A DNA stretch of 60,467 nucleotides from Dehalococcoidia bacterium (GCA_034431935.1 DAOUCU010000096.1:1-60467); one strand, 5' to 3'. Counted from the stretch's first letter, positions 10,495 to 33,342 are shown. Translations and numbers: made by a program. The notes: generated from the letters alone by a model not told the origin.

Positions 10495-10506
10495 TCGGGT
10501 GTTCTA

Positions 10507-13763: not shown

Positions 13764-13776
13764 TCAAGGAGATAAG

Positions 13777-16072: not shown

Positions 16073-16079
16073 CCCTGAG

Positions 16080-16862
16080 CTACTTTAACCTCGCCAGTGT
16101 CCAGTCGATAGATTCTGCCCAGATGTTCATGACTGCCTGGTTACTGCCCAGACCGCCCTCCGCACTTGCGGGCAGGCCGAGCTGGCTCTTATAGGTATTG
16201 GGGCCGTCGCCCATAATATCTCTGGTGATGTGTTCGCCGGATACAATCAGCATCGGGATGAACTTCACTCTCTTGAAGCCGGACTTCTTGATCTGGGCAA
16301 AGGCCGCTTCCGTTCCCGGCGGGCCTTCAAGAGTTACCAGAAAAACTCCCCGGTAGTGCTTGCGCACGTACTTTTCCATAAGCAGAAGCTGGGCATTGTA
16401 GCCCGGATGCTTAGCGTTGCCATGACTGCATAGTACCGTAGCCGTTTCACTATCACCGAATTTCGGCTCAAGTGCGCGAGCGACTCTTTCGATGTTGTCC
16501 GGGGGGGCCAGAAGTGGATAGCCGTACTCGATGTCCAGTCCCTCGGCAGGTGTAGTGAGGGCATCGCTGTACTCGCTTCCCGTCATGACCAGCAAGCTCT
16601 GGACTGAGGCCTTTGATACCCCTTCACGGCGGAGGTCGTCGTAGACTTCTTCCAGATTCTGTACCGGGACTTTTCGCTCGAACATTGTGTTGCGGCCGGA
16701 CTCTCTCAGCTTCTTAAGAATGAATTCTGAGGTAAGGGCCCACCTGACGTCGTGGGCCGGGTAGCGTTGGCGGACCAAAGTGTCAACGTCTTCGAGGTTC
16801 TTCTGACCTTCGGGTGAGGTGCTGCCGAAGATGGTGATAACGATGACCGGGGGTTTGTTCAT
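16080..16862 (-). CDS. cbiK: Sirohydrochlorin cobaltochelatase, CbiK type (class II chelatase)
   Basis: 260 aa. Colinear with CbiK: VIVITIFGSTSPEG..., CSHGNAKHPG (His site), VTLEG, and IPMLIVSGEHITRDIMGD (second His site). Starts 18 nt after the upstream TAXI-like gene. Confidence 0.8.
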   Translation of the reverse strand: MNKPPVIVITIFGSTSPEGQKNLEDVDTLVRQRYPAHDVRWALTSEFILKKLRESGRNTMFERKVPVQNLEEVYDDLRREGVSKASVQSLLVMTGSEYSDALTTPAEGLDIEYGYPLLAPPDNIERVARALEPKFGDSETATVLCSHGNAKHPGYNAQLLLMEKYVRKHYRGVFLVTLEGPPGTEAAFAQIKKSGFKRVKFIPMLIVSGEHITRDIMGDGPNTYKSQLGLPASAEGGLGSNQAVMNIWAESIDWTLARLK

Positions 16863-16880
16863 TGTTGATTGGCTCCCTTG

Positions 16881-18035
16881 CTAATTAAGACTTTGAAAAA
16901 CACGGAACGGAGGCAGATCGAGCTTCTTTTTGTAGCTCTCCCAGAGTTCGACCCATGCTGGATTCTTCGGCTCGATGGAGATACCTTTTCTGTCAGCCAT
17001 GGCGATGGCTTCATCGTAAGCGGTGCAGTAGCGGCTGACGAGTTCGATATTGGCTTTCTGGCGGCGGTCGTGTGCCGATGTCCATAGCCCCAGTTCTTTC
17101 AAATACAAGACCAGTCCTTCGTGGCAGGGAACGAAAGTCCGTTTCAGTTCCTCGAGTAGAATATCGCGCCTCATGAACTCGTTCCAGGGATGGAGATTCT
17201 TGAACCGGTGGTAGTTCTCATCGAGCCACCTGGCCAGATGATAAACGAAGCTGGCATCGGTCTGCTCCCGGGTAAAGTATAAACTGGTACCGCATGTTCC
17301 CCAGTGCCCGATGGAGGACGGCACGCCGCTGAAGATAGGTCCAAAGGTTATCAGCGGCTTGACGGCCCAGAAGCGCTTGGCGCCTTCCGGGTCGGTCTCC
17401 GGATTAAGGTCTATCCAGCGGATGCCGTGGGGATTAAGCTCGGCTTTCTTGATTGACTCGGCAGTCGGGATGGCGAAGGCGATATCAGCTTTGCCTTGAA
17501 CGACCAGTTCCGCTTTGTGCGTGGCGTTTTTGGCTGGAACCCAGACGACATCTTCTTCCCCGATCCCGGCCCAGGCGAGCAGGGCATCGACTATTGGCTG
17601 GTCTTCGATATAGGTACGCATATCAGGCATCCGAATGCCGGGCTTGATATCGTAGATAGTCCGGACTGGCGAATCTCCTCTGACGAAGAAGCCGGAGTTG
17701 GAGCGTGACTGTACCCAGACGACTCTGAGGGGAAACGGTCCCGTTTCGCGGCCGGCGTAGCGCTGTTTGGCTTCGAGCATGCGGGCAAGTTCACCGGCAC
17801 CGCCAGCAGTGATATGGGCTTGGCCGTTGTGTATCGCTCGAAATCTGGTGACCGTATCGGGTGTGCCAATCACCGTTACTTTGATGCCGGTCTCGGCGGA
17901 GAGCAGGTTGGCCCAGGATTTAAGTATGTCTTCTCCCAGGCCGGTCCAGCCCATAGCTTTCAATTCTTCGGGCCATTTATAGTCATGTATGGATGTGATT
18001 TGTACCATGAATGCGTCCAAGCTCACAGAAGTCAA
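16881..18035 (-). CDS. TAXI-family TRAP solute-binding-protein homologue without signal peptide
   Basis: 384 aa. Paralogous along its full length to the lipoprotein SBP at 27101..28330 (RVVWVQSRSNSGFFVRGDSPVRTIYDIKPGIR..., PCHEGLVLYLKELGLW). The N-terminus MTSVSLDAFMVQITSIHDYKWPEE has no hydrophobic segment. An in-frame TGA lies 3 codons upstream of the first possible start. Confidence 0.75.
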   Translation of the reverse strand: MTSVSLDAFMVQITSIHDYKWPEELKAMGWTGLGEDILKSWANLLSAETGIKVTVIGTPDTVTRFRAIHNGQAHITAGGAGELARMLEAKQRYAGRETGPFPLRVVWVQSRSNSGFFVRGDSPVRTIYDIKPGIRMPDMRTYIEDQPIVDALLAWAGIGEEDVVWVPAKNATHKAELVVQGKADIAFAIPTAESIKKAELNPHGIRWIDLNPETDPEGAKRFWAVKPLITFGPIFSGVPSSIGHWGTCGTSLYFTREQTDASFVYHLARWLDENYHRFKNLHPWNEFMRRDILLEELKRTFVPCHEGLVLYLKELGLWTSAHDRRQKANIELVSRYCTAYDEAIAMADRKGISIEPKNPAWVELWESYKKKLDLPPFRVFQSLN

Positions 18036-18123
18036 GAACAGTCAGCGTTTACCGCGCTGTCATATTAGCGCTACCTCCGGTGACCGGTTTAATTCCCGTT
18101 TTGAATTAAATAGCTGGCGAAAC

Positions 18124-18156
18124 GGCCAGCCTTCGAATAGTTCGCAAAGGCTGGCC
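18124..18156 (-). terminator. Strong stem-loop downstream of the 160-aa lipoprotein gene (terminator or processing site candidate)
   Basis: GGCCAGCCTT (18124..18133) pairs with AAGGCTGGCC (18147..18156): perfect 10-bp stem. The loop can add 4 more bp. On the minus-strand RNA it is followed by GUUUCGCC, so only a weak U-tract. Confidence 0.4.
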
Positions 18157-18176
18157 GGGATCATCCGTTGGAGACC

Positions 18177-18659
18177 CTAGTAGTCGCTTACCGTGATCCT
18201 GTAGACAACTGTCTTGGTTACCGTCTGGCCATCCTTGGTAGCGGTGACTTCAATGGTGCCATCACCCTTGGCTACCTGACGTGGAATCTTCCATTCCCAG
18301 ACAACTTTACCACTGGCATCGGCGGTCTTGGTCTTCTCGGTGGGGTAGGCACTGACGGTTCCGGTCTTGGGATTGGTCACTTTGATGGTGCAGACAGCTC
18401 CCGGGACAGTTGTTACTGTGACTTGAGTTGGAGCGTTAGCTTGGCCGTCAAGGACCGGTGTTACATCCAGCGGGAAGGCCCCGCCGCTTGGCGCGGCCGG
18501 TGCCGGTGACGCTGCTGGTGCCGGGGTCGGGCTCGCCGCCGGCTTGGGTGCTGGCGATGGTGATGCGGTTGGAGCTGCGGCTCCGCCGCAGGCTGAGGCG
18601 AGGACGAAGGAGAGAATCATGATTCCGATGATGGTTGCGACTCTAATCATCCTTGACAT
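18177..18659 (-). CDS. Secreted protein or lipoprotein with Pro/Ala-rich linker and a C-terminal beta-rich domain
   Basis: 160 aa. Signal peptide MSRMIRVATIIGIMILSFVLASAC, then a PAPKPAASPTPAPAASPAPA linker. The C-terminal domain is shared with the neighbouring gene (GKVVWEWKIPRQVAKGDGTIEVTAT). Confidence 0.65.
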   Translation of the reverse strand: MSRMIRVATIIGIMILSFVLASACGGAAAPTASPSPAPKPAASPTPAPAASPAPAAPSGGAFPLDVTPVLDGQANAPTQVTVTTVPGAVCTIKVTNPKTGTVSAYPTEKTKTADASGKVVWEWKIPRQVAKGDGTIEVTATKDGQTVTKTVVYRITVSDY

Positions 18660-18718
18660 GTGTTCTTTGCCTCCTTTCTATTGCGTCTACATGACGTAAC
18701 GGTGCTAATGTCGTTATT

Positions 18719-19681
18719 TTAGCTCAGGGTGTACTTTGCCTCCTTCTTTACTGTCTGGTCCCCAAGAACTGCGGTAAACTCCATTGTGCCTTCGCCAGTC
18801 CGGGCCCTGTCGGTTATGGTCCACTCCCAAACTACCCTACCGTTAGCATCCGCTGGCTTATTGTCTTTGTCGTCAGGGTATCGGCTTACAGTGCCGGTGC
18901 CCGGTAAGGTGCTGAAGATACTGACCTTAGCACCCGGCAGAGTCTTGACTTCAACTCTTATGCGGCCGCCTGGCTTCGCCGGGCTGATTGAGACGATATC
19001 AAGGAACAGTTTTTCTGTGGTTGTCGATGTTGCCGGGGAAGGAGTGGGTGTCGGAGATGGTTTCGGCGGCGCAACTTTAAGCGGCCGGTCGCCCTGAGTT
19101 ACGTCAAGTTTCATAACCGCCTCTATTTTGGCGGTGCCTAAAGCGCTTACCTTAACAAACTTGTCCGCGTCGAAATCAAGAGTGAGGATAGTCTTCTGCC
19201 CCGCCTTGATCTCCCACGGTTGAACAACCTTTAGTTTATCACTGGGAAGGTCAGCGTTTATATCCTGGCCACGGAACGTTACCACACATTTAGCCACATC
19301 AAATCGTATCTGTGTGTATTTTCCCTCGGGGATGTCCTTCGTGCCAAGGAGGATTTCAGCACCCTCAATTGCTACTAAATCGAATGTCTGCTCTTTATCT
19401 ACCAGCGTTATCCATTTGTCGTCGGGGTCGGTGGCACTGTGTACCTGGATGTTATTGACTGTAACCAGGATCTTGGTGACGCCAGTTGGTGGCGCATCGG
19501 TTGCTCTGACCTCTGCGGTACCCGTAGCTGTTGGTGATGGTATTGGCTTGGGAGCCGGAGCTGGTGTTGAAGTTGGAGCCGGTGGTGACGCCGGTGCAGG
19601 CGCGCCGCAGGCAGCTAGAAACACGCCGGCTGCGAAGATGAGTACCAGCAATAGTAATGATGCTTTGCCCGGTGTTCTCAT
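18719..19681 (-). CDS. Lipoprotein with a DUF4382-like domain plus the same C-terminal domain as the 160-aa neighbour
   Basis: 320 aa. Lipobox FLAAC. DUF4382-like block (EVRATDAPP...ILVTVNNIQVHS...WITL...QTFDLVAIEG...IPEGKYTQIRFDV...LTLDFDADK). C-terminus GRVVWEWTITDRARTGEGTMEFTAV. Confidence 0.65.
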   Translation of the reverse strand: MRTPGKASLLLLVLIFAAGVFLAACGAPAPASPPAPTSTPAPAPKPIPSPTATGTAEVRATDAPPTGVTKILVTVNNIQVHSATDPDDKWITLVDKEQTFDLVAIEGAEILLGTKDIPEGKYTQIRFDVAKCVVTFRGQDINADLPSDKLKVVQPWEIKAGQKTILTLDFDADKFVKVSALGTAKIEAVMKLDVTQGDRPLKVAPPKPSPTPTPSPATSTTTEKLFLDIVSISPAKPGGRIRVEVKTLPGAKVSIFSTLPGTGTVSRYPDDKDNKPADANGRVVWEWTITDRARTGEGTMEFTAVLGDQTVKKEAKYTLS

Positions 19682-19735
19682 TTCGACCTCCTCTGCTTCC
19701 TTTAACTTTCCTTGAACTAATGTGGATTGACTTAA

Positions 19736-20617
19736 TTAACTGTGACAGCCGTGCTGATACTGTTCGGCAATCTCCCACAGTTGTTTCAGCAAATCGGGGC
19801 GTACATCCCGGATGTTGCGCCACTGGCCACGGGCGGCGTAGACATCTTCGGGCGTTATTTCATACTCGATTGCCTCCTCCACGGCTTCTCTGCCGGCCGA
19901 GGCCATCTTCTTGATGCCTTGGGAACCCACGATGACGCAGGTGCCGCCGCGGTACCACGTTCCAGCCTGGTCTCCGACTATATTAACGTAGGCATCAGCC
20001 ATCTGTGTTTCTATGCCGCGGCCCAGGTCCAGATAGCTGATTTCTGGTTGGTTTGGCCGCCAGGGGCCGGCGGAAGGCCGAACCTTAAGCCAGCAGCCGG
20101 CGATAGCTTGAGCGTAGGCGATCTCCGGGTGGCGGTTATCGAGGCATATCAGTACGCCGATACGCCCGAACTCGGTATCGAAAATGCCAATGCGTTCGCC
20201 GGCTTTGAAAAATGCCGCCTCGTCGTGAAGTTTGCCCGAAGTTCTGGCCAGCAGATGGACGAGGTAGAGCTTACGTGCGGAGCCGATGACGCCGTTGGGC
20301 CCCACCAGCGCCGCAGCGTTGTAAACGTCGCCCCGGGAGCGCTCGGCCATACCGACTATAACCAGACAGTGCTTACCTTTCAGCCTGGCAGAAATCTGTT
20401 CGGTCGCCGGTCCGGGTATAGTCTCCGCCTGGTCTTCATAGTTGACCTTGCCGGTAGTGTCATACCCGTTCAGGACGCATTCACCGAAGGCGATGAGGTT
20501 GGCTCCGGCGGCCAACCCGCGGTCGGTCCATTCCAGGACCTTCTTGAGGTTGGCTGCCTTGTTATTCAGTTCCGGGTGCATCTGTACCAGAAAGAGTTTC
20601 ACACAAGCCCCCCGCAA
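19736..20617 (-). CDS. Carbon-nitrogen hydrolase family protein (nitrilase/amidase superfamily)
   Basis: 293 aa. Candidate Glu-Lys-Cys triad in LIAFGECVLNGYD, ARKLYLVHL and GVLICLDNRHPE. The likely true start is the GTG at 20602 (MKLFLVQMHPEL). Confidence 0.8.
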   Translation of the reverse strand: MRGACVKLFLVQMHPELNNKAANLKKVLEWTDRGLAAGANLIAFGECVLNGYDTTGKVNYEDQAETIPGPATEQISARLKGKHCLVIVGMAERSRGDVYNAAALVGPNGVIGSARKLYLVHLLARTSGKLHDEAAFFKAGERIGIFDTEFGRIGVLICLDNRHPEIAYAQAIAGCWLKVRPSAGPWRPNQPEISYLDLGRGIETQMADAYVNIVGDQAGTWYRGGTCVIVGSQGIKKMASAGREAVEEAIEYEITPEDVYAARGQWRNIRDVRPDLLKQLWEIAEQYQHGCHS

Positions 20618-20635
20618 AAGTCCTATTAACCTTAA

Positions 20636-22933
20636 CTAGTCATTGCCGTTGAGGTCGTTGAAAAGCTTGAACGGCGGTAAACCCTTCTCTTTCTTGTACT
20701 CTTCCCACAGCTTGACCCACTCGGGATTATCAGCGACGACCGAAAGTCCCCTGCTGTCGGCGAGTCGGATTGCCTCCTGATAGGCTTCACAGTACCGTGT
20801 GACGAGCTCGAGGTTCTGTTTTTGACGCCGCTCGTGGGCTGGTGTCCACAGCTTGAGCTCCTTTAGGTATTTTATCAACCCTTCATGGCAGGGCACAAAC
20901 GTGTGCTTCAGTCCCTCGAGAAGTACCTCCCGGGTGCGGAAGCGGTTCTCGGGATGGCTGGAGGCGAAGCGGGCGTAGTTCTCATCAAACCACTTGGCCA
21001 GGTGATAGACAAGTTCCGCCGAAGTCCTTTCGGCGGTAAGCTCAAGGTTGATGCCCTCGGTGCACCAGACTCCGACCGCTGACTTGACGCCGCCCTCGGG
21101 GCAGATGCCGAAGTTGACCAGCGGGTCTACCTGCTTGAAGCGTCTGGCGCCTTCAGGGTCTTTCTCGGCATTAAGTTCAATCCATTTCAGGCCATAGGGG
21201 TTTTTCTCTGCCTCAGCCATGGTCGGTGAGGTTGGGAAGCTGAATCCGAGGTCGGCTCGCCCTTCGATGACGGCTTTATAGTTCTCGACCGAATTGTTGC
21301 AGTCGACCCAGACAATGTCCTTTTTATCCACCTGGGCCCAGGCGAGCAGGGCTTCGACAATGCGGGTGCTGGCAACGTAGGTCATGTTAACGATGCGGGT
21401 GCCCGGCTTGATGTCGTGCGGTGTCCTTATCCTGGAGTCGCCGCGCACAAAGAACCCGGCATTGCCCTTGGAGTGAGACCAGACCACCCTGACCTGGAAG
21501 GGACCGCCGTCGCGGACGGCGTAGCGGCGATCAGCCATTAACATCTGGCTGGTCTCGCTCGGTGCGCCCGCCGATAGGTCGAAGAGCCCGAGGTGGCCAA
21601 GCCAGCGGAAGCGGTTCACGGTATCGAATTCCGGTGCCACATGGATGCGCATCTGGGCGTCCTCTTCCAGGTACTTTGCCCAGCCCCTGGTGCAGTCGAC
21701 GCCGACACCGGCCCAGCTGACCACGGAAAGCTTGCTCGGCCAGACCCAGCCTTTGCTGCCCATCTTGTGTCCCGGCAGGTCATCTTCGAGGTTGCGGAAC
21801 ATCTTGATGCGGGGTATACCGGCATCCTTCTTATAATTCTCCCAGAGCTCAATCCACTCCGGGTTCTTGGGGTCAACCTTGATGTTCTTGCGGTCGGCCA
21901 TCTCGATAGCCGCCTGATTGGCCGCAACATAGCGGGAGATAAGATCCACATTCGTCCGATGGCGGCGTTCGTGTGCCGGTGTCCACAACTTTAGCTCTTT
22001 GAGGTAAGCGACCAGGCCGTCGTGACACGGGATAAACGTATGCTGTAGTTCCTGCATGAGGGTATCACGGGTCATGTACTCGTTCCAGGGATGGAGTTTG
22101 CGGTATTTCTCGTAGTTCTCGTCGAACCATTTGGCCAGGTTGTAGACGAACTCGGCATCGGTCTGCTCGCGGGTGCAGTAAAGGCTGATGCCAACCGTGC
22201 CCCAGTGCCCTATTGCCGAAGGCGGGCCGTTAAACATCGGGCCGAAGCTGACGAGCGGGTCGACCGTCTGAAATCTGGCCAGGCCCTCCGGGTCCTTTTC
22301 CGGATTGCAGTCAATCCATCGGATGCCGTAAGGGTTCTTTTCGGCGGCGAGGATGGATGGCGACGAAGGTACGGCGAAGGCGACATCGGCCTTGCCCTCA
22401 ACAACCAGTTGCGCTTTGTGGTCCGAGCTGGTGGCCGGCACCCAGACGACGTCCTTTTCCGGGTCGAGTTTGGCCCAGAGCAAGAAACCTTCCAGAATGC
22501 GCTGGCTGGCGAGGTAGCCTCTCATGTCTACCACGCGAACGCCTGGCTTCAGGTCATATATGTCTTTGATGGGCGAATCGCCCCGGACGAAGTAGCCTGA
22601 GTTCGACTTTGACTGGGCCCACACCGCCCGTATCTGGAAGGGACCGGTGTCGCGGGCGGCGTAGCGGCGATCGCCTTCAATCATCTGGCTGGTCTCGGTC
22701 GTGCCGCCGGCGGTAAGCTGGAAAAGGCCGAACCGGGTCCATTTGAAACGCTGAACTGTGTCCTGAGTGTGGGCAACGCGGCATTTCATGCCGGTATCAG
22801 CCTGAAGCACCTTGGTCCAACTGCCGAGTATTTGCTGGCCGAGACCGGTCCAGCCAACGACAGCGAACTCTTCAGGCCATTTGTAAGAGGACTTTGCCCT
22901 GGTTGCGTTTGCTTTTGCTGGTGTCATGTTCAT
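20636..22933 (-). CDS. Tandem double TAXI-family solute-binding-protein homologue (two complete modules in one ORF) without signal peptide
   Basis: 765 aa. Module 1 is about aa 15-385 and module 2 about aa 395-765. Each is colinear with the 384-aa and 409-aa paralogues. N-terminus MNMTPAKANATRAKSSYKWPEE is hydrophilic. Good SD (AAAGGAA) before the ATG. Junction: ...IKMFRNLEDDLPGHKMGSKGWVWPSKL... Confidence 0.75.
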   Translation of the reverse strand: MNMTPAKANATRAKSSYKWPEEFAVVGWTGLGQQILGSWTKVLQADTGMKCRVAHTQDTVQRFKWTRFGLFQLTAGGTTETSQMIEGDRRYAARDTGPFQIRAVWAQSKSNSGYFVRGDSPIKDIYDLKPGVRVVDMRGYLASQRILEGFLLWAKLDPEKDVVWVPATSSDHKAQLVVEGKADVAFAVPSSPSILAAEKNPYGIRWIDCNPEKDPEGLARFQTVDPLVSFGPMFNGPPSAIGHWGTVGISLYCTREQTDAEFVYNLAKWFDENYEKYRKLHPWNEYMTRDTLMQELQHTFIPCHDGLVAYLKELKLWTPAHERRHRTNVDLISRYVAANQAAIEMADRKNIKVDPKNPEWIELWENYKKDAGIPRIKMFRNLEDDLPGHKMGSKGWVWPSKLSVVSWAGVGVDCTRGWAKYLEEDAQMRIHVAPEFDTVNRFRWLGHLGLFDLSAGAPSETSQMLMADRRYAVRDGGPFQVRVVWSHSKGNAGFFVRGDSRIRTPHDIKPGTRIVNMTYVASTRIVEALLAWAQVDKKDIVWVDCNNSVENYKAVIEGRADLGFSFPTSPTMAEAEKNPYGLKWIELNAEKDPEGARRFKQVDPLVNFGICPEGGVKSAVGVWCTEGINLELTAERTSAELVYHLAKWFDENYARFASSHPENRFRTREVLLEGLKHTFVPCHEGLIKYLKELKLWTPAHERRQKQNLELVTRYCEAYQEAIRLADSRGLSVVADNPEWVKLWEEYKKEKGLPPFKLFNDLNGND

Positions 22934-22968
22934 GGTTCCTTTCTAAAGTCGGTAATATGGACTTTCGC

Positions 22969-22991
22969 CGCGTGGCGTTTTTCGCCGCGCG
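22969..22991 (-). other. Intercistronic stem-loop between the permease and the double-SBP gene
   Basis: CGCGTGGCG (22969..22977), TTTTT loop, CGCCGCGCG (22983..22991): 9-bp stem with 1 mismatch. Confidence 0.35.
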
Positions 22992-23003
22992 CCGTGTACC
23001 TGC

Positions 23004-24974
23004 CTATGTTGCTGTTCTTAACGCCGCCGCTCGTCTCATAAGCTCAGCAATCGCGATTACCACGGCCGCCATTCCGAAACCGATGAGCGTCGTTCTTGGC
23101 TCAGGGAGGGCGATTAGGAAACCGCCGGTGCCGATTACGGCTCTTTGCCACCACGAGAGCCGTCCGACCCGCACCATGTAACCTTCAATCGCCGAAGCCA
23201 GGATGAGGATGCCAAGTAAAGCGATAAACAGGTGGTAAATGATGTCGCCCGGCGTTCCCTGCATGACCAGCGCCGGTTGCAGTATGAAGAAGAAAGGCAT
23301 GAAGAAAAGTACAATAGCCTGTCGGAAGGCAATCCAGGCCGTTTTCATCGGGTTTGCGCCGCCGACGCTGGCGGCGATAAAGGCGCCGACGGCGACCGGC
23401 GGGGTGACATCGCCCAGTACCGAGTAGCATATAAGGAAAAGGTGACAGGCGACCAGAGGCACGTCTCCGATGGCCGCCACCGCCGGGGCCATGGTGACGG
23501 AGAGGAAGATGAATGCTGACGTATCCAGGCCGACCATACCCATCATAATGTTGAAGGCGGCGGCGATAGCCAGGATAAGGTAAAGGTTGTTAGCCCCGAG
23601 TCCGACAACCCAGGCGGTGATGGCGGCGGCAACGCCGGTCTTGAACAGACCGACCAGTATCAGGCTCATTGACAGAAAGATGCCGACACCGAAATTAATC
23701 AAGCTGGCGGTCTGGGAGAGCGCCTTCTCGATCTTCGCCCAGCTCATGCGTGTCCTCCTGCTGGTGAAAGTGAGCAGGAACATCAGGAAAGCGGCGTAGA
23801 TTGGCGTTATAGCGCCCCATCTGAAGTAAATGAGGCCAACGATAAGGAAGAGTATGGCCACTATATATATCCATCCGTCGCGCAGCACCGGTAGAACCGG
23901 CGGCACCTCTTCCTTTGGGAGTCCCCTCATTCCAATTTTTGCGGCGTGGGCATCTATCTGCATTAGCAGGCAGGTGAAGTACAATACCGCGGGTATCACG
24001 GCGGCAATCATGATGGTGGTGTACTCATAGCCGCCGATGATGGCGGCGAGAAATGCCAGACCGCCCATGATTGGCGGCATGATGGGACCTCCACAGGAAC
24101 TGCAGGCTTCGACTGCGGCGGCACGTTCCGGAGAGAAGCCCATCCTTTTCATAGCGGGGATGGTATAAGTACCGGTACCGACAATATTGGCGATGATGGA
24201 ACCGCTGAGTGTGCCAAATAAAGCGCTGGAAAGCACTGATACCTTGGCCGGGCCGCCGCGGAAGCGGCCAAGTATGGACGTTGCCAGCTTGAGGAAGAAA
24301 TCAGCGGCGCCAAGACCGCTGATGACACCGGCAAACAGGTAGAAGCCGAGAATGAGACTGCCGAACATGGCCGCAGGCAGTCCCAGCATGCCGTTGGCCC
24401 CATAGGCGAAATCACCAACGAGTTCCGAGAAGGTGATGGGGTAGCCGGCCAGAACGCCGGGGAGCCTGTCAGCGAACATGGGATAGACTATGGAAATGCC
24501 AAGGAGAGTCAGATAGCCCCATCCGCCGATTCTCCGGCCGGCTTCAAGGCCGAGCCCCAGTACGATGACCGCGGCGGCAAAGGTGATGAAGTTCGGCGGC
24601 GGCTCCCACATTCTTAGTGATATTGGCTCGGAATTGATGAGAAAGAAAAGCACACAGGCCAGGAGCACCGAAGCCATTACATAGTCGTACCATGGCGGTG
24701 CCCGCTTTTTCTGTTTCTGGGTTGCTGGCAGTCCCATAAAGACGTTGAATACCATAACGGTGTAGAGAAGGTAGAAGTAGAAGGTCCCGCTGAGCACATT
24801 ACCGAAAATAGCGATGCCCTTGAAGTGGATGATGAACAGGGCCATGGCAATCATAGTTGAAACGATGAACCAGAGCTTGATGGGCTTTGGCATGAGGTGG
24901 TAACGGCCGATGGCGCCGGTTGGCTCTATGGTCTTTGTAACGGTGCTCTCAGGCACTCTTACAGGGCCTCCCAT
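23004..24974 (-). CDS. TRAP transporter fused permease subunit (4TM/12TM DctQM-type fusion typical of TAXI systems), paralogue 1
   Basis: 656 aa, highly hydrophobic and multi-TM. Colinear with the adjacent 654-aa paralogue (RYxLMPKP, FRGGPAKVSxLSSA, GSxIANIVGTGxxTIPAMK, EACSSxGGxIMPPIMG). Confidence 0.85.
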   Translation of the reverse strand: MGGPVRVPESTVTKTIEPTGAIGRYHLMPKPIKLWFIVSTMIAMALFIIHFKGIAIFGNVLSGTFYFYLLYTVMVFNVFMGLPATQKQKKRAPPWYDYVMASVLLACVLFFLINSEPISLRMWEPPPNFITFAAAVIVLGLGLEAGRRIGGWGYLTLLGISIVYPMFADRLPGVLAGYPITFSELVGDFAYGANGMLGLPAAMFGSLILGFYLFAGVISGLGAADFFLKLATSILGRFRGGPAKVSVLSSALFGTLSGSIIANIVGTGTYTIPAMKRMGFSPERAAAVEACSSCGGPIMPPIMGGLAFLAAIIGGYEYTTIMIAAVIPAVLYFTCLLMQIDAHAAKIGMRGLPKEEVPPVLPVLRDGWIYIVAILFLIVGLIYFRWGAITPIYAAFLMFLLTFTSRRTRMSWAKIEKALSQTASLINFGVGIFLSMSLILVGLFKTGVAAAITAWVVGLGANNLYLILAIAAAFNIMMGMVGLDTSAFIFLSVTMAPAVAAIGDVPLVACHLFLICYSVLGDVTPPVAVGAFIAASVGGANPMKTAWIAFRQAIVLFFMPFFFILQPALVMQGTPGDIIYHLFIALLGILILASAIEGYMVRVGRLSWWQRAVIGTGGFLIALPEPRTTLIGFGMAAVVIAIAELMRRAAALRTAT

Positions 24975-25043
24975 TAATCAAGTGAATATATCTCTGCGGG
25001 CGTTGGGCCATCGCAAATAACAGGTCAGATCGTGTTGAGTAAG

Positions 25044-27008
25044 TTAACCGCCGCCAGCTATCGCAGGATTTTCTTTGCCCTTGCGGCCCTCCATCATTTT
25101 CCTGATCAGGACGAGTACGATGCCGATAACTGACAGAATCCCTCCGGCAAACGTTGTGAAAAGCTCGGGAAAAGCAATCAGAAAGCCTCCAGATATGAAG
25201 AATGCGCGCTCCCATGGTTTAATAGAGCCTAGACCGGTGAAGTAGCCTCCCGTACCGCAGACCATGATGAATATCCCGACCATGGCCATGATTAGATGGT
25301 AGAAGATGCTCCACGGTGTACCAACCATGGCTAGTGCCGGCTGGAAAACAAAGAAGAAGGGCACCAGCAGTAGCGGGACGAGCATGCGGGAGGCTGTGTA
25401 GGAAGTTTTTATCGGATTGGCACCGGCGATGCTGGCGGCAACATAGGCGTCAATGGCGACCGGTGGTGTTACGGTGCCGTATCCTGCCTGATAGATTATG
25501 AAAAGGAGGATAACGTAAATAGGGATATCCAGGACTTTGGCTATAGCCGGGGCGGCGGTGACCGATAAGAAGAGAAAAGCGGCGCGCTGGAGACCGACCA
25601 TGCCCATTACAACAGAGAAGCCGGTGGCAATAAAAAGGACGAAGTAAGCATTGCCCGCACCCAGCGAGACAATCCAGCTGGTAATAGCGGCGGCGACGCC
25701 GGTCTTGAACAGGCCGACCAGGATAAAGCCCATGGAGAAGGTGACGCCGACGGCGAAGTTTATCAGCCCGGCCATATGGGCAAGGGCCTCCTCCATTTTT
25801 TTCCACGTCGGGCGCATCTTCTTGTTGGTGAAGGCGAGAAGTATCGCCAAAATAGTGGCGTAAACGGGTACAATGGCCCCCCACCGCATATAGATCAACC
25901 CGAAGGCGAGAAAGGCGATGACAACGATATAAATCCAGCCTTCTTTGAGGGTAGGAATCAGCGGGGGACATTCGGAGCGGGTTAGTCCCTTCAGTCCGGC
26001 TTTGGCGGCGTAGGCGTCAATTTGTATCTGCATTGCAAATACATACAGGAATGCGGGTATCACTGCGGCAATGATAAACTGAGCATACTCTACGCCAGCG
26101 ATGACGCAGGCCAGAAATACCATGCCGCCCATTATCGGCGGCATGGTATCGCCGATGTTAGAGGAGCAGGCCTCGATGGCGGCGGCGTATTCAGGTGGGT
26201 AGCCAGTTTTCTTCATCGCCGGAATGGTAAAAGAGCCAGTGCCGACAATATTGGCGATGGTACTGCCGCTCATGGTGCCGAAGAAGGCACTGGCCAGTGA
26301 TGAGACCTTGGCAGGCCCTCCGCGGAACTGGCCGACCACTGAAGTGGCCAGCTTGACAAAGAAGTCGCCCCCGCCCATGCCCATGACTACGCCGGCGAAT
26401 AGATAGAAGCCCAGGACAAGTTCGGCAATCATCATCGCCGGGATGCCGAGAAGGCCGTTGGCTCCGAAAGCGAAATCTGAGAAAATATCGTTGAATGACT
26501 GCTTGACGCCCCAGAAAATGCCGGGCATGTAGTCGGCGACCAGCGGGTAAACGATCGAGACCAGTAATAGAGTGAGATACCCCCAACCGCCGATGCGCCG
26601 TCCGGCTTCCAGGGAAATGAGGCCTATTATGACCGCCAGCACCAGCTGGGGCCAGCCGGGCGCCGGTGTCCACATCCTCATGGCGATGATGCCGGAGTTG
26701 AAAGTGAAATAGATGAGAATAGTCACCAGAATGGTTGCAAGTACGTAGTCGTACCAGGGAGGCGGTCTGTGTCTGGCATAATGGTGGACAGCCAACCCCA
26801 TGAAGACGTTGAAACCGAGACAGGAGAACAGGATGTAGTAGTAAGGAACACCGCTGAGCACGTAGCCGAAGATAGGGATGCCCATGTAATGGAAACAGAA
26901 TAGCCCGATGGCAATAACCGTAGTCGATAAGAAGATGGCCTTGACCGGTTTGGGCATCAGGTCGTAGCGGGAAAGGGCACCTTTTCTTTGCTTGGGGGCC
27001 TCAGACAT
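25044..27008 (-). CDS. TRAP transporter fused permease subunit (4TM/12TM fusion), paralogue 2
   Basis: 654 aa. Same conserved blocks as paralogue 1 (QFRGGPAKVSSLASAFFGTMSGSTIANIVGTGSFTIPAMKKTGY). Confidence 0.85.
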   Translation of the reverse strand: MSEAPKQRKGALSRYDLMPKPVKAIFLSTTVIAIGLFCFHYMGIPIFGYVLSGVPYYYILFSCLGFNVFMGLAVHHYARHRPPPWYDYVLATILVTILIYFTFNSGIIAMRMWTPAPGWPQLVLAVIIGLISLEAGRRIGGWGYLTLLLVSIVYPLVADYMPGIFWGVKQSFNDIFSDFAFGANGLLGIPAMMIAELVLGFYLFAGVVMGMGGGDFFVKLATSVVGQFRGGPAKVSSLASAFFGTMSGSTIANIVGTGSFTIPAMKKTGYPPEYAAAIEACSSNIGDTMPPIMGGMVFLACVIAGVEYAQFIIAAVIPAFLYVFAMQIQIDAYAAKAGLKGLTRSECPPLIPTLKEGWIYIVVIAFLAFGLIYMRWGAIVPVYATILAILLAFTNKKMRPTWKKMEEALAHMAGLINFAVGVTFSMGFILVGLFKTGVAAAITSWIVSLGAGNAYFVLFIATGFSVVMGMVGLQRAAFLFLSVTAAPAIAKVLDIPIYVILLFIIYQAGYGTVTPPVAIDAYVAASIAGANPIKTSYTASRMLVPLLLVPFFFVFQPALAMVGTPWSIFYHLIMAMVGIFIMVCGTGGYFTGLGSIKPWERAFFISGGFLIAFPELFTTFAGGILSVIGIVLVLIRKMMEGRKGKENPAIAGGG

Positions 27009-27055
27009 TCAGCTTTCTCCCTAATTTTGCTCCGGTGGCCGTCGTGCTTGTGAAC

Positions 27056-27080
27056 GGGGGGCGTCGAGTAGACGCCCCCC
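27056..27080 (-). other. Perfect GC-rich intercistronic hairpin between the SBP gene and the first permease gene
   Basis: GGGGGGCGTC (27056..27065), 5-nt loop, GACGCCCCCC (27071..27080): 10 Watson-Crick pairs. No U-tract on either strand. Confidence 0.5.
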
Positions 27081-27100
27081 GTGATAAAAGACACTATGAA

Positions 27101-28330
27101 TCAGTAGTTATCAACGTAGTCCACAGTCAAACTCTGATGAAGGCCAATCTTGGGCAGGTGCTTCTCTTTCTGGTAGTTCTGCCAGAAGTTCATCCAGGCC
27201 TCATTGGTCGGGTCGATTTTGATTCCCTTAGAATCGGCCAGCTTGATTGCCTCAGGGTAGGCATTACACCAGGCCGTGACCGCGGCGATGTTGGTGGCCT
27301 GTCTCTTATCATGGGCGGGCGTCCAGAGGTTCTTTTCCTTGAGATACCTGATCAAGCCATCGTGCACCGGGATCATCGACCTTTCCAGAGCATTCATAAG
27401 CGCATCAATACTCATGTGCTCATTGGTGTCGAAAGCATTCTTGTACCGCTCGTAGTTCGTGTCCAGCCATTTGGCAAAATTATAGACAAGCTCGGGGTCA
27501 GACTTATCAAGGGTGACTTCAAGCGTGGCACCTGAGGTGCCCCATACGCCGCGGGCTTCGGGAACGCCGCTCAGAATTGGACCGAAGGCGTAAGCCGGGT
27601 CATTGGCGCGGAATCTGGCCGCGCCCTCCGGGTCTTTGTCCGAGTTTAGATCAAGGAATCGAATGCCACCTGGTGCAGCTGCCGCTTCGTATATCGCCGG
27701 TGAGGTCGGGAAGCCGAACATGATGTCGGCCCGGCCTTCGGCTACCGCCCTGGCGCATCCGTCATAGCTACCGGTATTTACCCATACTATCTGGTCATGG
27801 GGCAATTGAATCCAGTCCGCTATGGCCTTGGGCACTTTAAGTACCGTCGGCTGCATTGACCACACTGCCCAGCGTATACCCGGCTTGATGTCATAAATTG
27901 TCTTAATCGGAGAGTCGCCGCGGACAAAAATGCCGGAGTTGGAAATGGCGTGTATCCATACCACCCGCATCTGCCAGGGTCCGCCATCCCTTACCGCATG
28001 ACCTTCGGTGGCCTCAATAACGTTGCCCAGTTCACGCTTGCCGCCTTTGACCAGGAAGGCCTTGCCGGTCTGGACACTCATAAAACGCTGGATGCTGTTT
28101 TCCTCGGGAACAACCCTTATGGACATTCCCGTGTCCTTTTCCATGATTGTTGTCCAGCTCACATACTTGGCCAGGCCGGAGCCTCCCCCCGAAGATATTA
28201 TGAGAGTTCGTGGCCACTGCCAGCCGCTGGCTGTAGTCTGGGTTCCCCCGCCACAACCGCTGAAGAGCAGGGCAAGCACCACCACAGAAACGAATGCTAC
28301 CAGTACCAGATTTGCCTGTCTTCCTTTCAT
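27101..28330 (-). CDS. TAXI-family TRAP transporter solute-binding lipoprotein
   Basis: Start placed at ATG 28330 (MKGRQANLVLVAFVSVVVLALLFSGCGGG), preceded by AGGAGGAGG. Has a signal peptide and lipobox Cys. The mature part is a TAXI-type SBP (IPVHDGLIRYLKEKNLW near the end). Confidence 0.8.
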   Translation of the reverse strand: MKGRQANLVLVAFVSVVVLALLFSGCGGGTQTTASGWQWPRTLIISSGGGSGLAKYVSWTTIMEKDTGMSIRVVPEENSIQRFMSVQTGKAFLVKGGKRELGNVIEATEGHAVRDGGPWQMRVVWIHAISNSGIFVRGDSPIKTIYDIKPGIRWAVWSMQPTVLKVPKAIADWIQLPHDQIVWVNTGSYDGCARAVAEGRADIMFGFPTSPAIYEAAAAPGGIRFLDLNSDKDPEGAARFRANDPAYAFGPILSGVPEARGVWGTSGATLEVTLDKSDPELVYNFAKWLDTNYERYKNAFDTNEHMSIDALMNALERSMIPVHDGLIRYLKEKNLWTPAHDKRQATNIAAVTAWCNAYPEAIKLADSKGIKIDPTNEAWMNFWQNYQKEKHLPKIGLHQSLTVDYVDNY

Positions 28331-28682
28331 CTGACCTCCTCCTGAGTCTGTCCTTAACATTTTAAACGTTCCGGGCGGCTTGCAGGTAAAAGTACAACCG
28401 TCAGGTATAGCCATCCCCAGGTGCGAAATACTCCAGCGCGGCAGGTCAATTCTGGTGGGAACAAATGCGGGAGGTTGGCTGGAGAAACTTCACCTTGCCA
28501 CAAGACCCATTATAGTAGCGGCGGGCGGAATTGGGAATCCACCATTTCATTCATTATTAGGACGCAAAAGACGCCGATTGTGTAGTCCTTATGGTTTATG
28601 GTGGATGAACGGTGCAAACTACGTGGATTCGGGCGTCCGGTCGGTTCTGTGGTACCATGACCGCCAACTGCGGAGGTGAGCA

Positions 28683-28885: not shown

Positions 28886-29006
28886 TATTTAACCAATAGA
28901 AGCTATAGGGGGCATACGGATCCCGACTAAGGTGAAGTAGGAATCAGGAGAGCAGAATGGCTGGGGAAAGAGTGGGGGAAGAAATGGGCAACTATCACAA
29001 TAGCAT

Positions 29007-30647: not shown

Positions 30648-30653
30648 GCCGAA

Positions 30654-32707: not shown

Positions 32708-33342
32708 TTCATCTTCATCAGTGCCCTTGCCTTATTTACGGCATCGAGGGCATCCTTTCCCCAGGCGTCGGCACCGATCTGGTCGGCGAAGCTCTGGCTG
32801 GTAGGCACGCCACCCACCATCACCGCCAGCTTGTTTCTAAGGTCTCCGGACTTAACGCGGTGTACGATCGCGGCGACCTCGTCCATGGTAGTCGTCATAT
32901 AACAGCCCAGCCCCAGAATGTCAGGGTGAAGTTCTCTCCCCTTTTCAAGAAAAGTCTCCCTCGGCACGTCCTCGCCCAGGTCTATGACCTCGAACCCGGC
33001 ACCACGCAGCATCGCCACCACAATCATCTTGCCCAGGTCATGCATGTCCCCGGCTACGGTGCCAATCAGGTAGCGACCGGTATAGCTCTGTTCTCCTTTA
33101 GACAGCAGTGGTTCCAGCAATGTCAGCGCCTTGCGGAAAGCCTCAGCGCTCATCACCATATCCGGCAGGAAGTATTCATTTCTTTGCCAGAACTCGCCGG
33201 CGTCCTGGATGCCACCCATCACCCCATGTTGCAGAATCTCGTTAACCGGCAGCTGCGCTTCAATTGCCTGCCGGGCGAGTCTCTCGGCGGCGATGTCATC
33301 ACCTTCAGTGACCGCTCGTCGAAGGGAGGCAACTATATCCAT
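32704..33342 (-). CDS. Corrinoid (cobalamin-binding) protein, MtaC/MtbC-like
   Basis: 212 aa. N-terminal helical cap domain, then a B12-binding Rossmann domain with the DxHxxG motif (GDMHDLGKMIV) and SGDL...GG. AGGAGG 4 nt before the ATG. Confidence 0.85.
   Translation of the reverse strand: MDIVASLRRAVTEGDDIAAERLARQAIEAQLPVNEILQHGVMGGIQDAGEFWQRNEYFLPDMVMSAEAFRKALTLLEPLLSKGEQSYTGRYLIGTVAGDMHDLGKMIVVAMLRGAGFEVIDLGEDVPRETFLEKGRELHPDILGLGCYMTTTMDEVAAIVHRVKSGDLRNKLAVMVGGVPTSQSFADQIGADAWGKDALDAVNKARALMKMK

Follow-up and report, generated by a model that had tools for sequence, protein, structure and literature searches.

The array at positions 16080 to 28330 of a 60,467-nt stretch of Dehalococcoidia DNA (the window, by which we mean that whole stretch) appears from its gene content to be a composite, in which a TAXI-TRAP importer is joined to a cytoplasmic module that is conserved in Dehalococcoidia and has not been described before; we found no prior description of this gene set in the searchable literature. 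The putative core of the module is a pair of TAXI proteins, one N-type and one C-type, accompanied by a carbon-nitrogen (C-N) hydrolase and a CbiK-type chelatase. The wider set takes in HemE paralogues whose active-site motif is altered, a flavodoxin, exporters of the MFS and CDF (metal) types, and a regulatory pair made up of a soluble PAS kinase and a LuxR-type protein. The reading that we favor, to which we assign a probability of roughly 45%, is that heterodimeric cytoplasmic binding proteins receive an imported ligand and pass it to tetrapyrrole-type enzymes.

Open reading frames together with Pfam and NCBIfam matches confirm nine co-directional minus-strand genes, in the order and with the short gaps reported in the initial annotation of this sequence. 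The array encodes one lipoprotein TAXI solute-binding protein (SBP), two fused TRAP permeases, and three signal-less TAXI modules, as follows.

27101..28330, minus strand: exported TAXI-family solute-binding lipoprotein, 409 aa (PF16868, 41.7 bits)
25044..27008, minus strand: fused TRAP DctQM permease A (TIGR02123, 404 bits against a cut-off of 321)
23004..24974, minus strand: fused TRAP DctQM permease B (TIGR02123, 458 bits against a cut-off of 321)
20636-22933, minus strand: double TAXI protein, 765 aa, N-type half then C-type half
21764..22933, minus strand: predicted cytoplasmic TAXI module of the N-type subclade, residues 1-390 of the 765-aa fusion, no leader
20636..21763, minus strand: predicted cytoplasmic TAXI module of the C-type subclade, residues 391-765 of the 765-aa fusion
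19736..20617, minus strand: C-N hydrolase of the nitrilase superfamily (PF00795, 107 bits)
18719..19681, minus strand: DUF4382 lipoprotein, leader present (PF14321, 78.9 bits)
18177..18659, minus strand: small lipoprotein, sharing its C-terminal domain with the DUF4382 lipoprotein
16881..18008, minus strand: third predicted cytoplasmic TAXI module, N-type, 375 aa, identical to P0001; the ORF extends to 18035
16080..16862, minus strand: CbiK-family class II chelatase, cytoplasmic (PF06180, 112 bits)

From the exported SBP gene to cbiK, the intergenic gaps are 92, 69, 70, 18, 54, 59, 141, and 18 nt, and starting the single signal-less TAXI gene at the ATG at 18008 would widen the 141-nt gap to 168 nt. 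The paralogy noted in the same annotation also holds: the exported TAXI protein is 42-43% identical to the signal-less modules, the signal-less modules are 52-59% identical to one another, and the two permeases are 55% identical.

The exported SBP and the permeases form a normal TAXI-TRAP uptake unit, as had been proposed. The ATG of the exported SBP is preceded by a ribosome-binding site, GGAGGAGG, and its leader, MKGRQANLVLVAFVSVVVLALLFSGC, has the lipobox LFSGC. Permeases A and B have 16 TM-like segments each, are old paralogues rather than recent tandem copies, and are kept as a pair in loci L006 and L045. With the syntenic L006 locus (85-93% identical) as the reference, dN/dS lies between 0.04 and 0.09 for 13 of 14 genes, which places them under purifying selection. 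The values are 0.055 for the exported SBP, 0.089 for permease A, 0.069 for permease B, 0.053 for the 765-aa double TAXI protein, 0.090 for the single signal-less TAXI protein, and 0.056 for CbiK; the small lipoprotein gives 0.26.

As in the characterized TAXI-TRAP systems (TtGluBP of T. thermophilus and VC0430/VcGluP of V. cholerae, with fused DctQM permeases), the exported SBP and both permeases match the family models. Likewise, the signal-less module is predicted to adopt the TAXI fold, with 9ibo, 1us4, 8s4j, and 8u79 as the best Foldseek matches. The window differs from these systems in that identity to characterized TAXI SBPs is only 15-18%, two further helices extend the C terminus, the one exported SBP is accompanied by two permeases, and three of the four SBP modules lack an export signal and fall in a separate clade that mostly has no neighboring permease.

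The two surface lipoproteins probably belong with the importer unit. The C-terminal 94 aa of the DUF4382 lipoprotein are 44% identical to the small lipoprotein, homologues of which lie just upstream of an exported SBP and permease in L001, L009, L028, and L078. Two candidate control elements are found in the region.

~18112/18124..18156, minus strand: conserved hairpin, terminator-like or a processing stem, 3' of the small lipoprotein gene
28509..28537, minus strand: promoter-like site 5' of the exported SBP gene, TTCCCA-17-TATAAT, 10/12 matches, a consensus match only

The hairpin has a folding z-score of -3.1, is overlapped by a terminator-like match at 18112-18131, and is kept in two relatives, L006 and L044, through compensatory changes. 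The nine genes and their order are real, but the array is probably divided at this hairpin into one unit of seven genes and one of two. Promoter-like matches in the region are no more numerous than in shuffled sequence. The region has no known RNA element, cobalamin riboswitches included, which speaks against the tetrapyrrole reading.

Selection and phylogeny indicate that the signal-less TAXI copies are functional cytoplasmic proteins. In both signal-less ORFs the start is the first possible codon after an in-frame stop, and neither contains a hidden leader or a TM-like segment. All 53 signal-less homologues sampled form one clade (SH-aLRT of 100 for the branch), restricted in this sample to Dehalococcoidia/Chloroflexota, with an N-type subclade of 38 members and a C-type subclade of 11; the exported SBP of the window, 91% identical to P0053, is placed in the leadered clade. 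The initial annotation took the signal-less copies to be intracellular proteins and named relaxed selection as the mark of decaying copies; dN/dS of 0.05-0.09 shows no such relaxation.

The cytoplasmic clade has almost no conserved residue that exported members do not conserve as well, the common core including W12, P13, R95, R110, D112, D120, W146, D175, R212, H296, R316, and N320, among others. The few positions specific to the cytoplasmic clade cluster at residues 130-138, 164-165, and 191-192, and no residue, catalytic-looking or otherwise, is both invariant among cytoplasmic members and absent among exported ones. For the third module, the AF2 model (pLDDT 94.7) has TAXI SBPs as its best Foldseek matches, with VC0430 and TtGluBP on top. 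These proteins are thus best read as binding proteins rather than new enzymes. They had been suggested to replace enzymes, but they instead accompany CbiK, HemE, HemD, the C-N hydrolase, and flavodoxin, and they retain nearly every residue that exported members conserve. A cytoplasmic role for a protein of binding-protein fold is known from porphobilinogen deaminase, HemC.

At least nine distinct other loci encode an N-type and then a C-type protein as separate adjacent genes, with gaps of approximately 0-4 nt in L001, L003, L007, L009, L011, L016, L020, L047, L078, and L126; in L004 and L014 the two genes lie wider apart and an extra C-type copy is present. The 765-aa double protein, whose halves follow the same N-then-C order, is a gene fusion of this conserved adjacent pair. 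Its AF2 model (pLDDT 88, whole-protein pTM 0.75) shows a well-modelled N-type half and a disordered linker at residues 385-395. The best reading is that N-type and C-type cytoplasmic TAXI proteins function as a pair, and we propose that they form a heterodimer.

We surveyed the genes within 6 kb of 30 cytoplasmic-TAXI loci and 22 exported-only loci. A permease is found in 5 of the former versus 18 of the latter (Fisher p = 3e-6) and a C-N hydrolase in nine versus none (Fisher p = 0.007), the compared loci being related, so that these counts are not independent events. CbiK, HemE, or HemD is encoded within 6 kb of 13 of the 30 cytoplasmic-TAXI loci, and the difference from the exported loci is weak (p = 0.08). 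The C-N hydrolase belongs with the array, as the initial annotation had it. Rather than the single expanded transporter locus envisaged there, we see a separate conserved cytoplasmic module, mostly without a permease, that is joined to an importer in the window. The cytoplasmic pair lies directly downstream of a permease in the window, L006, L045, L009, and L078.

The module recurs in compact form. The order CDF-TAXI_N-TAXI_C-C-N hydrolase-CbiK is found in L047 and L126, and TAXI_N-TAXI_C-C-N hydrolase-flavodoxin-CbiK in L007 and L011. Flavodoxin is fused to TAXI_N in L001, L004, L014, L015, and L066, and to CbiK in L004, L014, and L122. L053 encodes a HemD-TAXI_C fusion, known from this single metagenomic contig, beside a stand-alone HemD. 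In L098, L035, L096, and L010, a HemD-like gene comes after a TAXI-TRAP unit or is found close to one.

The C-N hydrolase has the Nit2 omega-amidase as its best solved relative, with Glu, Lys, and Cys aligned; that this relative acts on small molecules runs counter to a tetrapyrrole substrate. The window's CbiK keeps the residues aligned to what we take to be His145, Glu175, and His207 of S. enterica CbiK, and a relative with 48% identity sits in a complete anaerobic cbi operon; the window's protein scores 69 bits, far below the NCBIfam equivalog cut-off of 400. It resembles the anaerobic cobaltochelatases of S. enterica (1qgo) and D. vulgaris (2xvx) and the haem-binding relative FetB (9b86) in its Pfam match and its aligned His/Glu/His. 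Unlike the cobaltochelatase genes, it lies beside genes for cytoplasmic TAXI proteins, C-N hydrolase, and flavodoxin rather than cbi genes, and it is fused to a flavodoxin domain in some TAXI-linked loci. Further candidate members of the module flank the array.

14843..16072, plus strand: MFS transporter, efflux type, convergent with cbiK (MFS_1, 200 bits)
12723-13763 and 13777-14808, plus strand: two tandem HemE paralogues (TIGR01464)
9790..12471, plus strand: LuxR-type response regulator and soluble PAS/HisKA_3 histidine kinase (domain matches)
8609..9565, minus strand: CDF (Cation_efflux) metal exporter (domain match)

The MFS gene recurs beside CbiK and cytoplasmic TAXI genes in L001, L004, L005, L006, L009, and L122. 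A CDF gene immediately precedes TAXI_N-TAXI_C-C-N hydrolase-CbiK in L047 and L126, and L006 and L044 each have one too. The HemE paralogues score 379 and 406 bits against the TIGR01464 hemE cut-off of 303, and the second aligns to HemE 3cyv with 331 bits (E 7e-98) and keeps the RQAGR and FSDI motifs. NLGHG is changed to NLGDG in both paralogues and in most other TAXI-linked copies (NLG[D/E]G overall). Synteny between the LuxR/PAS kinase pair and the module extends to L006, L044, L126, and the contig of P0020. The initial annotation was correct that no regulator is encoded inside the array, but this conserved pair adjoins the module.

A decarboxylase, a chelatase, and an FAD oxidase are arranged together in the B. 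subtilis-type hemEHY cluster. The module likewise brings a decarboxylase of the HemE type together with a class II chelatase, and in L001, L009, and L087 an FAD oxidoreductase joins them. The likeness is partial: the FAD enzyme does not specifically resemble the coproporphyrinogen oxidase CgoX/HemY, the TAXI-linked chelatase is of the CbiK type, HemE carries NLG[D/E]G, and the TAXI-linked module is multi-copy and transporter-linked.

In the mechanism that we propose, the exported SBP would capture a carboxylated ligand and the permeases would bring it in. The cytoplasmic pair, in which the conserved core of the exported clade is retained, would bind the same ligand class inside the cell. It would hold this ligand for, or present it to, three kinds of enzyme: the amidase, the chelatase (or dechelatase), and the decarboxylases. 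Flavodoxin would provide electrons, and the MFS and CDF transporters would clear product or metal. The pathway may run toward synthesis or breakdown. The most likely ligand is a polycarboxylated compound of the tetrapyrrole type, or a precursor of one, such as uroporphyrinogen, sirohydrochlorin, or a corrinoid-like molecule; given the His-to-Asp change in HemE, the substrate may not be uroporphyrinogen. This suggestion draws not on the C-N hydrolase alone but on the tetrapyrrole-family partners and domain fusions. To our knowledge, TRAP permeases are known for small organic acids only, and import of a whole tetrapyrrole (>650 Da) would be unprecedented.

A simpler model, in the spirit of the initial annotation, is one expanded uptake-and-catabolism locus whose substrate is a small carboxylate containing N, such as an amino-acid-like compound or the monoamide of a C5 dicarboxylate. 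The C-N hydrolase would deamidate it, the cytoplasmic TAXI proteins would serve as its buffers or carriers, and the relatives of HemE, HemD, and CbiK would have been recruited to carboxylates other than tetrapyrroles. TRAP systems transport small acids, and glutamate is the ligand of the characterized TAXI SBPs with a matching fold; both points are consistent with this model, as are the omega-amidase likeness and the consistent active-site change in HemE. At least ten TAXI-family loci are present in the SURF_40 genome and at least six in MAG227, exported and cytoplasmic counted together, and every copy comes with a MarR or two-component regulator of its own. Such multi-copy, individually regulated modules look more like an inducible catabolic family than one cofactor pathway, and the genes for aldehyde:ferredoxin oxidoreductase, CoA-transferase, and acyl-CoA ligase that recur near them fit organic-acid catabolism. 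However, the HemE paralogues exceed the hemE equivalog cut-off and the second keeps two HemE motifs, CbiK keeps its aligned catalytic residues and has a 48% identical relative in a genuine cbi operon, and chance recruitment is hard to credit when HemD, HemE, CbiK, and a metal exporter converge on one module. We therefore consider this model unlikely, if a serious contender.

It is considerably more doubtful that the cytoplasmic TAXI pair is itself enzymatic, which would make it the first catalyst on the TAXI fold, either as a porphobilinogen-deaminase analogue acting just before HemD or as a flavodoxin-dependent oxidoreductase or decarboxylase of the bound ligand. The HemD-TAXI_C fusion does look like a fusion of consecutive pathway steps, and the flavodoxin-TAXI_N fusions put a redox cofactor on the module. 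Thi5 HMP-P synthase, an enzyme with a periplasmic-binding-protein-type fold inside the cell, is among the Foldseek matches, but that relation is at the level of fold, with no sequence kinship, and no catalytic residues specific to cytoplasmic TAXI proteins were found. The Cys of a P-C-H-E-G motif is present in 73% of cytoplasmic members, and in exported members the three residues seen most often at this site do not include it; it is not invariant, however, and Cys enrichment is expected for cytoplasmic over exported proteins. The conserved core, moreover, is common to bona fide exported SBPs beside permeases.

Lower still we place a sensory role, in which the cytoplasmic TAXI proteins would detect the imported ligand and signal its presence to MarR regulators or the soluble PAS kinase, much as extracytoplasmic SBPs do for some sensor kinases. 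The adjacent kinase lacks a TM segment, so that its signal must come from the cytoplasm, and approximately half of the modules have nearby either a MarR regulator or a kinase with a LuxR-type response regulator. The type of regulator differs between loci, though, while the enzyme partners are constant, the fusions are to flavodoxin and HemD rather than to signalling or DNA-binding domains, and three modules per locus would be excessive for a sensor.

That the signal-less genes, paralogous as they are to the exported SBP of the same array, might be decaying duplicates or start-codon artefacts has a negligible chance in view of their dN/dS values, the in-frame stops just 5' of their first possible starts, their monophyly, and the conservation of pair order, fusions, and partner genes; non-functional copies are refuted by the selection and phylogeny results.

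An operon upstream of the array is given as context.

29007..33342, minus strand: four-gene corrinoid methyltransferase operon (B12-binding protein, URO-D-like methyltransferase, MtrH/MtgA-like methyltransferase, RACo activator)

This operon adjoins the array only in the window and in L045, which is approximately 95-98% identical.

The initial annotation had described nine co-directional minus-strand genes with short gaps (18-141 nt), and open reading frame calls together with Pfam and NCBIfam searches confirm that observation as a whole: the genes are present in the order it gave, and the gaps we measured agree with it. The genes of the array and its flank are listed below.

Genes of the array and of the flank of its cytoplasmic module, with the supporting family matches
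27101-28330, minus strand, exported TAXI solute-binding protein (SBP; Pfam/NCBIfam)
25044-27008, minus strand, fused TRAP permease PermA (TIGR02123, 404 bits, cut-off 321)
23004-24974, minus strand, fused TRAP permease PermB (TIGR02123, 458 bits, cut-off 321)
20636-22933, minus strand, 765-aa protein with two TAXI modules (Pfam/NCBIfam)
19736-20617, minus strand, C-N hydrolase (Pfam PF00795)
18719-19681, minus strand, DUF4382 lipoprotein (Pfam)
18177-18659, minus strand, small lipoprotein of 160 aa (matches no family)
16881-18035, minus strand, single TAXI module (Pfam)
16080-16862, minus strand, CbiK-family protein (Pfam)
14843-16072, flank, MFS transporter
12723-14808, flank, two HemE genes (HemE1, 12723-13763; HemE2, 13777-14808)
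9790-12471, flank, regulator pair (LuxR response regulator and PAS kinase)
8609-9565, flank, CDF metal exporter

The exported SBP starts at an ATG at 28330, preceded by GGAGGAGG, and its lipoprotein leader ends in LFSGC. For the single signal-less protein, the most likely start is the ATG at 18008, which gives a protein of 375 aa that is identical to the database protein P0001. PF16868 (cut-off 27) scores 41.7 bits for the exported SBP, 67.7 bits in two stretches for the double protein and 36.7 bits for the single one, and the corresponding scores for TIGR02122 (cut-off 84.35) are 72.6, 97.1 and 55.7 bits. The exported and signal-less modules share 42-43% identity, while the signal-less modules share 52-59% among themselves. 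PermA and PermB are 55% identical, and each has 16 TM-like segments, as expected for the 4+12 TM architecture of fused permeases. A recent tandem duplication of the permeases is rejected by the clustering of PermA with single permeases of other loci, apart from PermB, and the two are best read as old paralogues. Except for its two permeases, the importer part of the array is a typical TAXI-TRAP system. The DUF4382 and small lipoproteins have a common 94-aa C-terminal domain with 44% identity.

A signal peptide or lipoprotein anchor is found on the product of 27101-28330 only; the double protein, the 375-aa protein and all members of a 53-member clade to which their modules belong have neither. 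Hidden leaders and wrong start codons are excluded, since both proteins begin at the first start codon past a close in-frame stop, so that no leader can hide upstream, and no hydrophobic or TM segment was found in either. With the single module as query, 5.8 billion proteins yielded 136 matches, and those with a named source come from Dehalococcoidia or Chloroflexota assemblies. The approximately 50 closest full-length matches (43-84% identity) all lack a leader, and in each the conserved W-P motif lies 6-19 residues in from the N-terminus; no lipoprotein form appears above 44% identity. The TAXI subfamily is small: 1.84 billion representatives, searched exhaustively, gave only 855 relatives at E <= 1e-3. 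A maximum-likelihood tree sets the 53 signal-less sequences apart by a branch with SH-aLRT support of 100. Among them, a 38-member subclade (N-type) takes in both the single protein and the N half of the double protein, and an 11-member subclade (C-type) takes in the C half of the double protein; the exported SBP lies among the lipoproteins.

The initial annotation had also raised relaxed selection as a sign that the leaderless paralogues are decaying copies. For the dN/dS comparison we used locus L006 of Chloroflexota MAG227, where synteny with the window extends between the response regulator and the exported SBP and the proteins are 73-93% identical. Of the 14 genes compared, 13 have ratios of 0.04-0.09, with the double TAXI gene at 0.053 and the single one at 0.090; the small lipoprotein gene is the exception at 0.26. 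These low ratios, together with the conservation of the clade, refute the view that the signal-less genes are decaying.

Modelled with AF2 (pLDDT 94.7), the single module has the two-lobe TAXI fold, and the top seven Foldseek matches in the PDB are all TAXI SBPs (VC0430, TtGluBP, VCA0144 and an Ehrlichia immunogenic protein; E 6e-18 to 7e-16). Sequence identity to VC0430, TtGluBP and VCA0144 is 15-18%, and the window module differs from these by an additional two-helix C-terminal extension. When 52 cytoplasmic members were compared with 55 exported ones, nearly all residues with at least 85% conservation among the cytoplasmic members matched the exported-clade consensus. The few clade-specific positions group at 130-138, 164-165 and 191-192, a Cys precedes an invariant His in 73% of the cytoplasmic members, and no catalytic residue specific to the cytoplasmic clade is invariant across this comparison. 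We infer that the signal-less proteins have retained ligand binding and changed their surfaces with no gain of catalysis. They have the fold and signature of TAXI SBPs but are not extracytoplasmic and mostly lack a permease partner; they probably act "like a binding protein" and should not be filed as transporter subunits.

An N-type gene is followed by a C-type gene with a gap or overlap of 0-4 nt in ten loci (L001, L003, L007, L009, L011, L016, L020, L047, L078 and L126), and L004 and L014 keep this order but space the genes more widely and have an additional C-type copy. The fused 765-aa form occurs in the window, in L006, in L045 (a relative with approximately 95-98% identity) and in two database proteins, with its modules in the order of the separate genes. 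By a Rosetta-stone argument, this arrangement points to an N-C heterodimer, and the 765-aa protein is most readily explained as a fusion of the conserved gene pair. At L007 9980-12244, L009 9989-12286, L078 4170-6467 and L020 7255-9534, the two genes share a reading frame that is interrupted only by one stop codon (TAG alone in L020, TAA with one sense codon in the other three). The 765-aa form could therefore stem from the loss of one stop codon, and occasional read-through at unfused loci is conceivable. For the AF2 model of the fusion, an alignment with paired rows, built from the in-frame N-C gene pairs read through the single stop codon, replaced a MAFFT alignment that stacked all single modules onto the N half. 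Both modules of the model are well folded (pLDDT 88), the linker at 385-395 is disordered, and the pTM of 0.75 is above that expected for two halves placed independently.

To compare neighbourhoods, we annotated 126 fetched loci against reference proteins of the window and related loci, and counted genes within a 6 kb radius for loci with enough flanking DNA after removal of near-copies. A permease lies within this radius at 5 of 30 loci with cytoplasmic TAXI genes, compared with 18 of 22 loci with exported TAXI genes only (Fisher p 3e-6), and a C-N hydrolase at 9/30 and 0/22, respectively (p 0.007); these counts are lower bounds owing to short contigs, and the loci are related and so are not independent events. 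A flavodoxin-type protein is near 8 of 30 cytoplasmic-TAXI loci and none of the 22 exported-only loci, while CbiK, HemE or HemD is found at 13/30 and 4/22, a weak contrast (p 0.08). Signal-less TAXI and fused DctQM permease genes are nevertheless adjacent in the window, which the initial annotation had interpreted as a single expanded locus. That interpretation is supported in part: the signal-less copies are not decaying, but the single locus does not hold up, given how seldom a permease accompanies the cytoplasmic genes.

Compact gene sets recur at these loci. L047 and L126 have the order CDF-TAXI_N-TAXI_C-C-N hydrolase-CbiK, with a LuxR response regulator and PAS kinase also present in L126, and L007 and L011 have the order TAXI_N-TAXI_C-C-N hydrolase-flavodoxin-CbiK with HemE nearby. 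The contig of the database protein P0020 carries a regulator pair, a permease, two TAXI genes, a C-N hydrolase and CbiK, and a second set of URO-D, TAXI, C-N hydrolase and TAXI genes. These recurring sets identify in the window an archetypal cytoplasmic module with its flanking MFS, HemE, regulator and CDF genes, and we regard the importer (exported SBP, two permeases and two lipoproteins) as an addition to it. The small lipoprotein is probably part of the importer, since a homologue precedes the SBP-permease pair in L001, L009, L028 and L078. Where the window has one CDF gene, its close relative L044 has two tandem Cation_efflux genes at 9773-11753. Family-5 ABC solute-binding lipoproteins of approximately 575 aa with the motif TPNPVE(T/E)S(M/L)PIYGG recur beside cytoplasmic TAXI genes in one MAG (SURF_40; L013, L015, L017, L019, L020 and L037).

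A strong hairpin (z = -3.1) follows the small lipoprotein gene, and compensatory changes preserve it in L006 and L044. Together with an overlapping terminator-like match, it suggests two transcription units, 28330-18177 and 18008-16080. Approximately 180 nt upstream of the SBP start is a promoter-like site, with such matches being no commoner in this region than in shuffled sequence. Riboswitch control is not supported, as neither a cobalamin riboswitch nor any other Rfam element was found in the window at the gathering threshold or at 15900-34000 at E <= 1. The kinase of the regulator pair has no membrane segment and thus would sense something cytoplasmic.

Both HemE copies pass the TIGR01464 hemE equivalog cut-off of 303 (379 bits for HemE1 and 406 bits for HemE2), and HemE2 matches the HemE structure 3cyv at 331 bits (E 7e-98). 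The FSDI motif is present in both, and a search for the RQAGR motif matched HemE2 only. The conserved NLGHG reads NLGDG in the window copies and mostly NLG[D/E]G in other TAXI-linked HemE proteins with a locatable motif, which suggests that these paralogues form a distinct HemE subfamily; the change may indicate a different substrate. The HemE copies of L005, L006, L007, L011, L020 and L044 also pass the equivalog cut-off, with NLGDG in all except L005, which has NLGEG, and the motif search gave no match in the copies of L009, L048 and L078. The CbiK-family protein scores 112 bits with Pfam and 69 bits against an NCBIfam equivalog cut-off of 400, and its gene context is the TAXI module rather than cbi genes. 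It keeps all three residues that align with the His/Glu/His of S. enterica CbiK, which we take to be His145, Glu175 and His207; among solved structures, its best relatives are the haem-binding FetB and D. vulgaris CbiK. All of the 45 relatives that could be detected appear to come from Chloroflexota-type sources, and one of them (48% identity) lies within a full anaerobic cbi operon with CbiA, C, D and G, several methylases and a BtuF-like ABC system.

At L053 3645-6397, the gene for a HemD-TAXI_C fusion (649 aa; HEM4 E = 1.5e-36) comes after a stand-alone HemD gene and overlaps it by 4 nt. This fusion was found on one contig only, and an SBP_bac_5 lipoprotein gene lies upstream. A HemD-like gene follows a TAXI-permease pair in L098, and others are near TAXI-TRAP units in L035, L096 and L010. 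At L035 2744-9405, on the MAG227 contig of L006, the HemD-like gene lies between two divergent C-N hydrolase genes, next to which are genes for two 525-aa Amino_oxidase flavoproteins, just upstream of an exported TAXI and permease; the arrangement looks like a further variant of this theme. N-type TAXI modules of L001, L004, L014, L015 and L066 carry a fused flavodoxin domain with an S-x-S/T-G-H-T loop, and such domains are fused to CbiK in L004, L014 and L122. The C-N hydrolase (PF00795, 107 bits) keeps the Glu-Lys-Cys triad, and FGE-C, RKLYL and ICLD align with LPE-C, RKIHL and ICYD of Nit2 (2w1v). The Nit2 omega-amidase is its closest solved relative, at only E = 6e-20, and it reaches no NCBIfam equivalog cut-off. 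No informative solved relative was found for a 340-aa FMN_red protein, and assignment of an L001 FAD oxidoreductase as a coproporphyrinogen oxidase was rejected, its matches being to the generic FAD motif only.

Taken together, we read the array as an importer joined to a conserved cytoplasmic module of TAXI heterodimer, C-N hydrolase and CbiK, which would handle a tetrapyrrole-type ligand, and we give this reading as a whole a probability of roughly 0.45. Its structural and evolutionary parts are much more secure, and we hold these with high confidence. Enzymes of three tetrapyrrole families converge on the TAXI pair, as do flavodoxins and a metal exporter, and the simplest common factor would be a tetrapyrrole-type ligand, polycarboxylated and metal-binding, or a precursor of one. 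The pathway could lead to synthesis, salvage or disassembly. Against such a ligand, TRAP systems are to our knowledge known for small acids only. The modules are also multi-copy, individually regulated and often near AFOR, CoA-transferase and acyl-CoA ligase genes, a pattern that looks catabolic. Furthermore, the HemD fusion comes from a single contig, the contrast in tetrapyrrole genes between cytoplasmic and exported loci is weak, and the HemE motif change may imply another substrate.

A more specific proposal, which we regard as unlikely, is a Dehalococcoidia cytoplasmic tetrapyrrole-handling pathway in which the signal-less heterodimer carries, or even transforms, polycarboxylated intermediates during salvage or disassembly of haem or corrinoid precursors. 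The heterodimer would pass intermediates among HemD-like and HemE-like enzymes, a CbiK-type chelatase or dechelatase, the amidase and flavodoxin; the CDF pump would dispose of freed metal, the MFS pump would export the product, and in some loci the TAXI-TRAP importer would feed the route. If true, this would be the first non-transport role for the TAXI fold.

We know of TAXI proteins only as extracytoplasmic receptors of TRAP transporters, and full-text searches on TAXI-TRAP proteins and on uroporphyrinogen, its decarboxylase and CbiK in Dehalococcoidia found no literature on cytoplasmic TAXI proteins or on this gene set. An ancient, selected and repeatedly duplicated cytoplasmic clade with a fixed heterodimer partner, flavodoxin and HemD fusions and constant enzyme neighbours indicates that the fold has acquired a second use, inside the cell. 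This would bear on how Dehalococcoidia, which are abundant, mostly uncultured and corrinoid-dependent subsurface bacteria, obtain their tetrapyrroles. The pipeline labels "TRAP transporter solute-binding subunit", "sirohydrochlorin cobaltochelatase" and "uroporphyrinogen decarboxylase" probably misdescribe the pathway, and the 765-aa fused protein is a ready construct for ligand screening and structure work.

Directly upstream of the array and on the same strand, 29007-33342 holds a four-gene corrinoid methyltransferase operon that encodes an MtgC-like corrinoid protein, a weakly URO-D-like methyltransferase, an MtgA/MtrH-like methyltransferase and a RACo activator. A general link between this operon and the array is not supported, as they are adjacent only in the window and in L045, at approximately 95-98% identity. 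Three ORFs at 4473-5168, 5716-6390 and 6865-8241 (231, 224 and 458 aa) lie between housekeeping genes and the CDF/regulator block, and none has a Pfam match at E <= 1e-5. The accessory block (approximately 8.6-33.3 kb) has no island signature in its GC content. Just past the corrinoid operon, tRNA-Glu(CTC) and tRNA-Gln(CTG) at 33736-33896 mark its border with housekeeping purine and branched-chain amino-acid genes.
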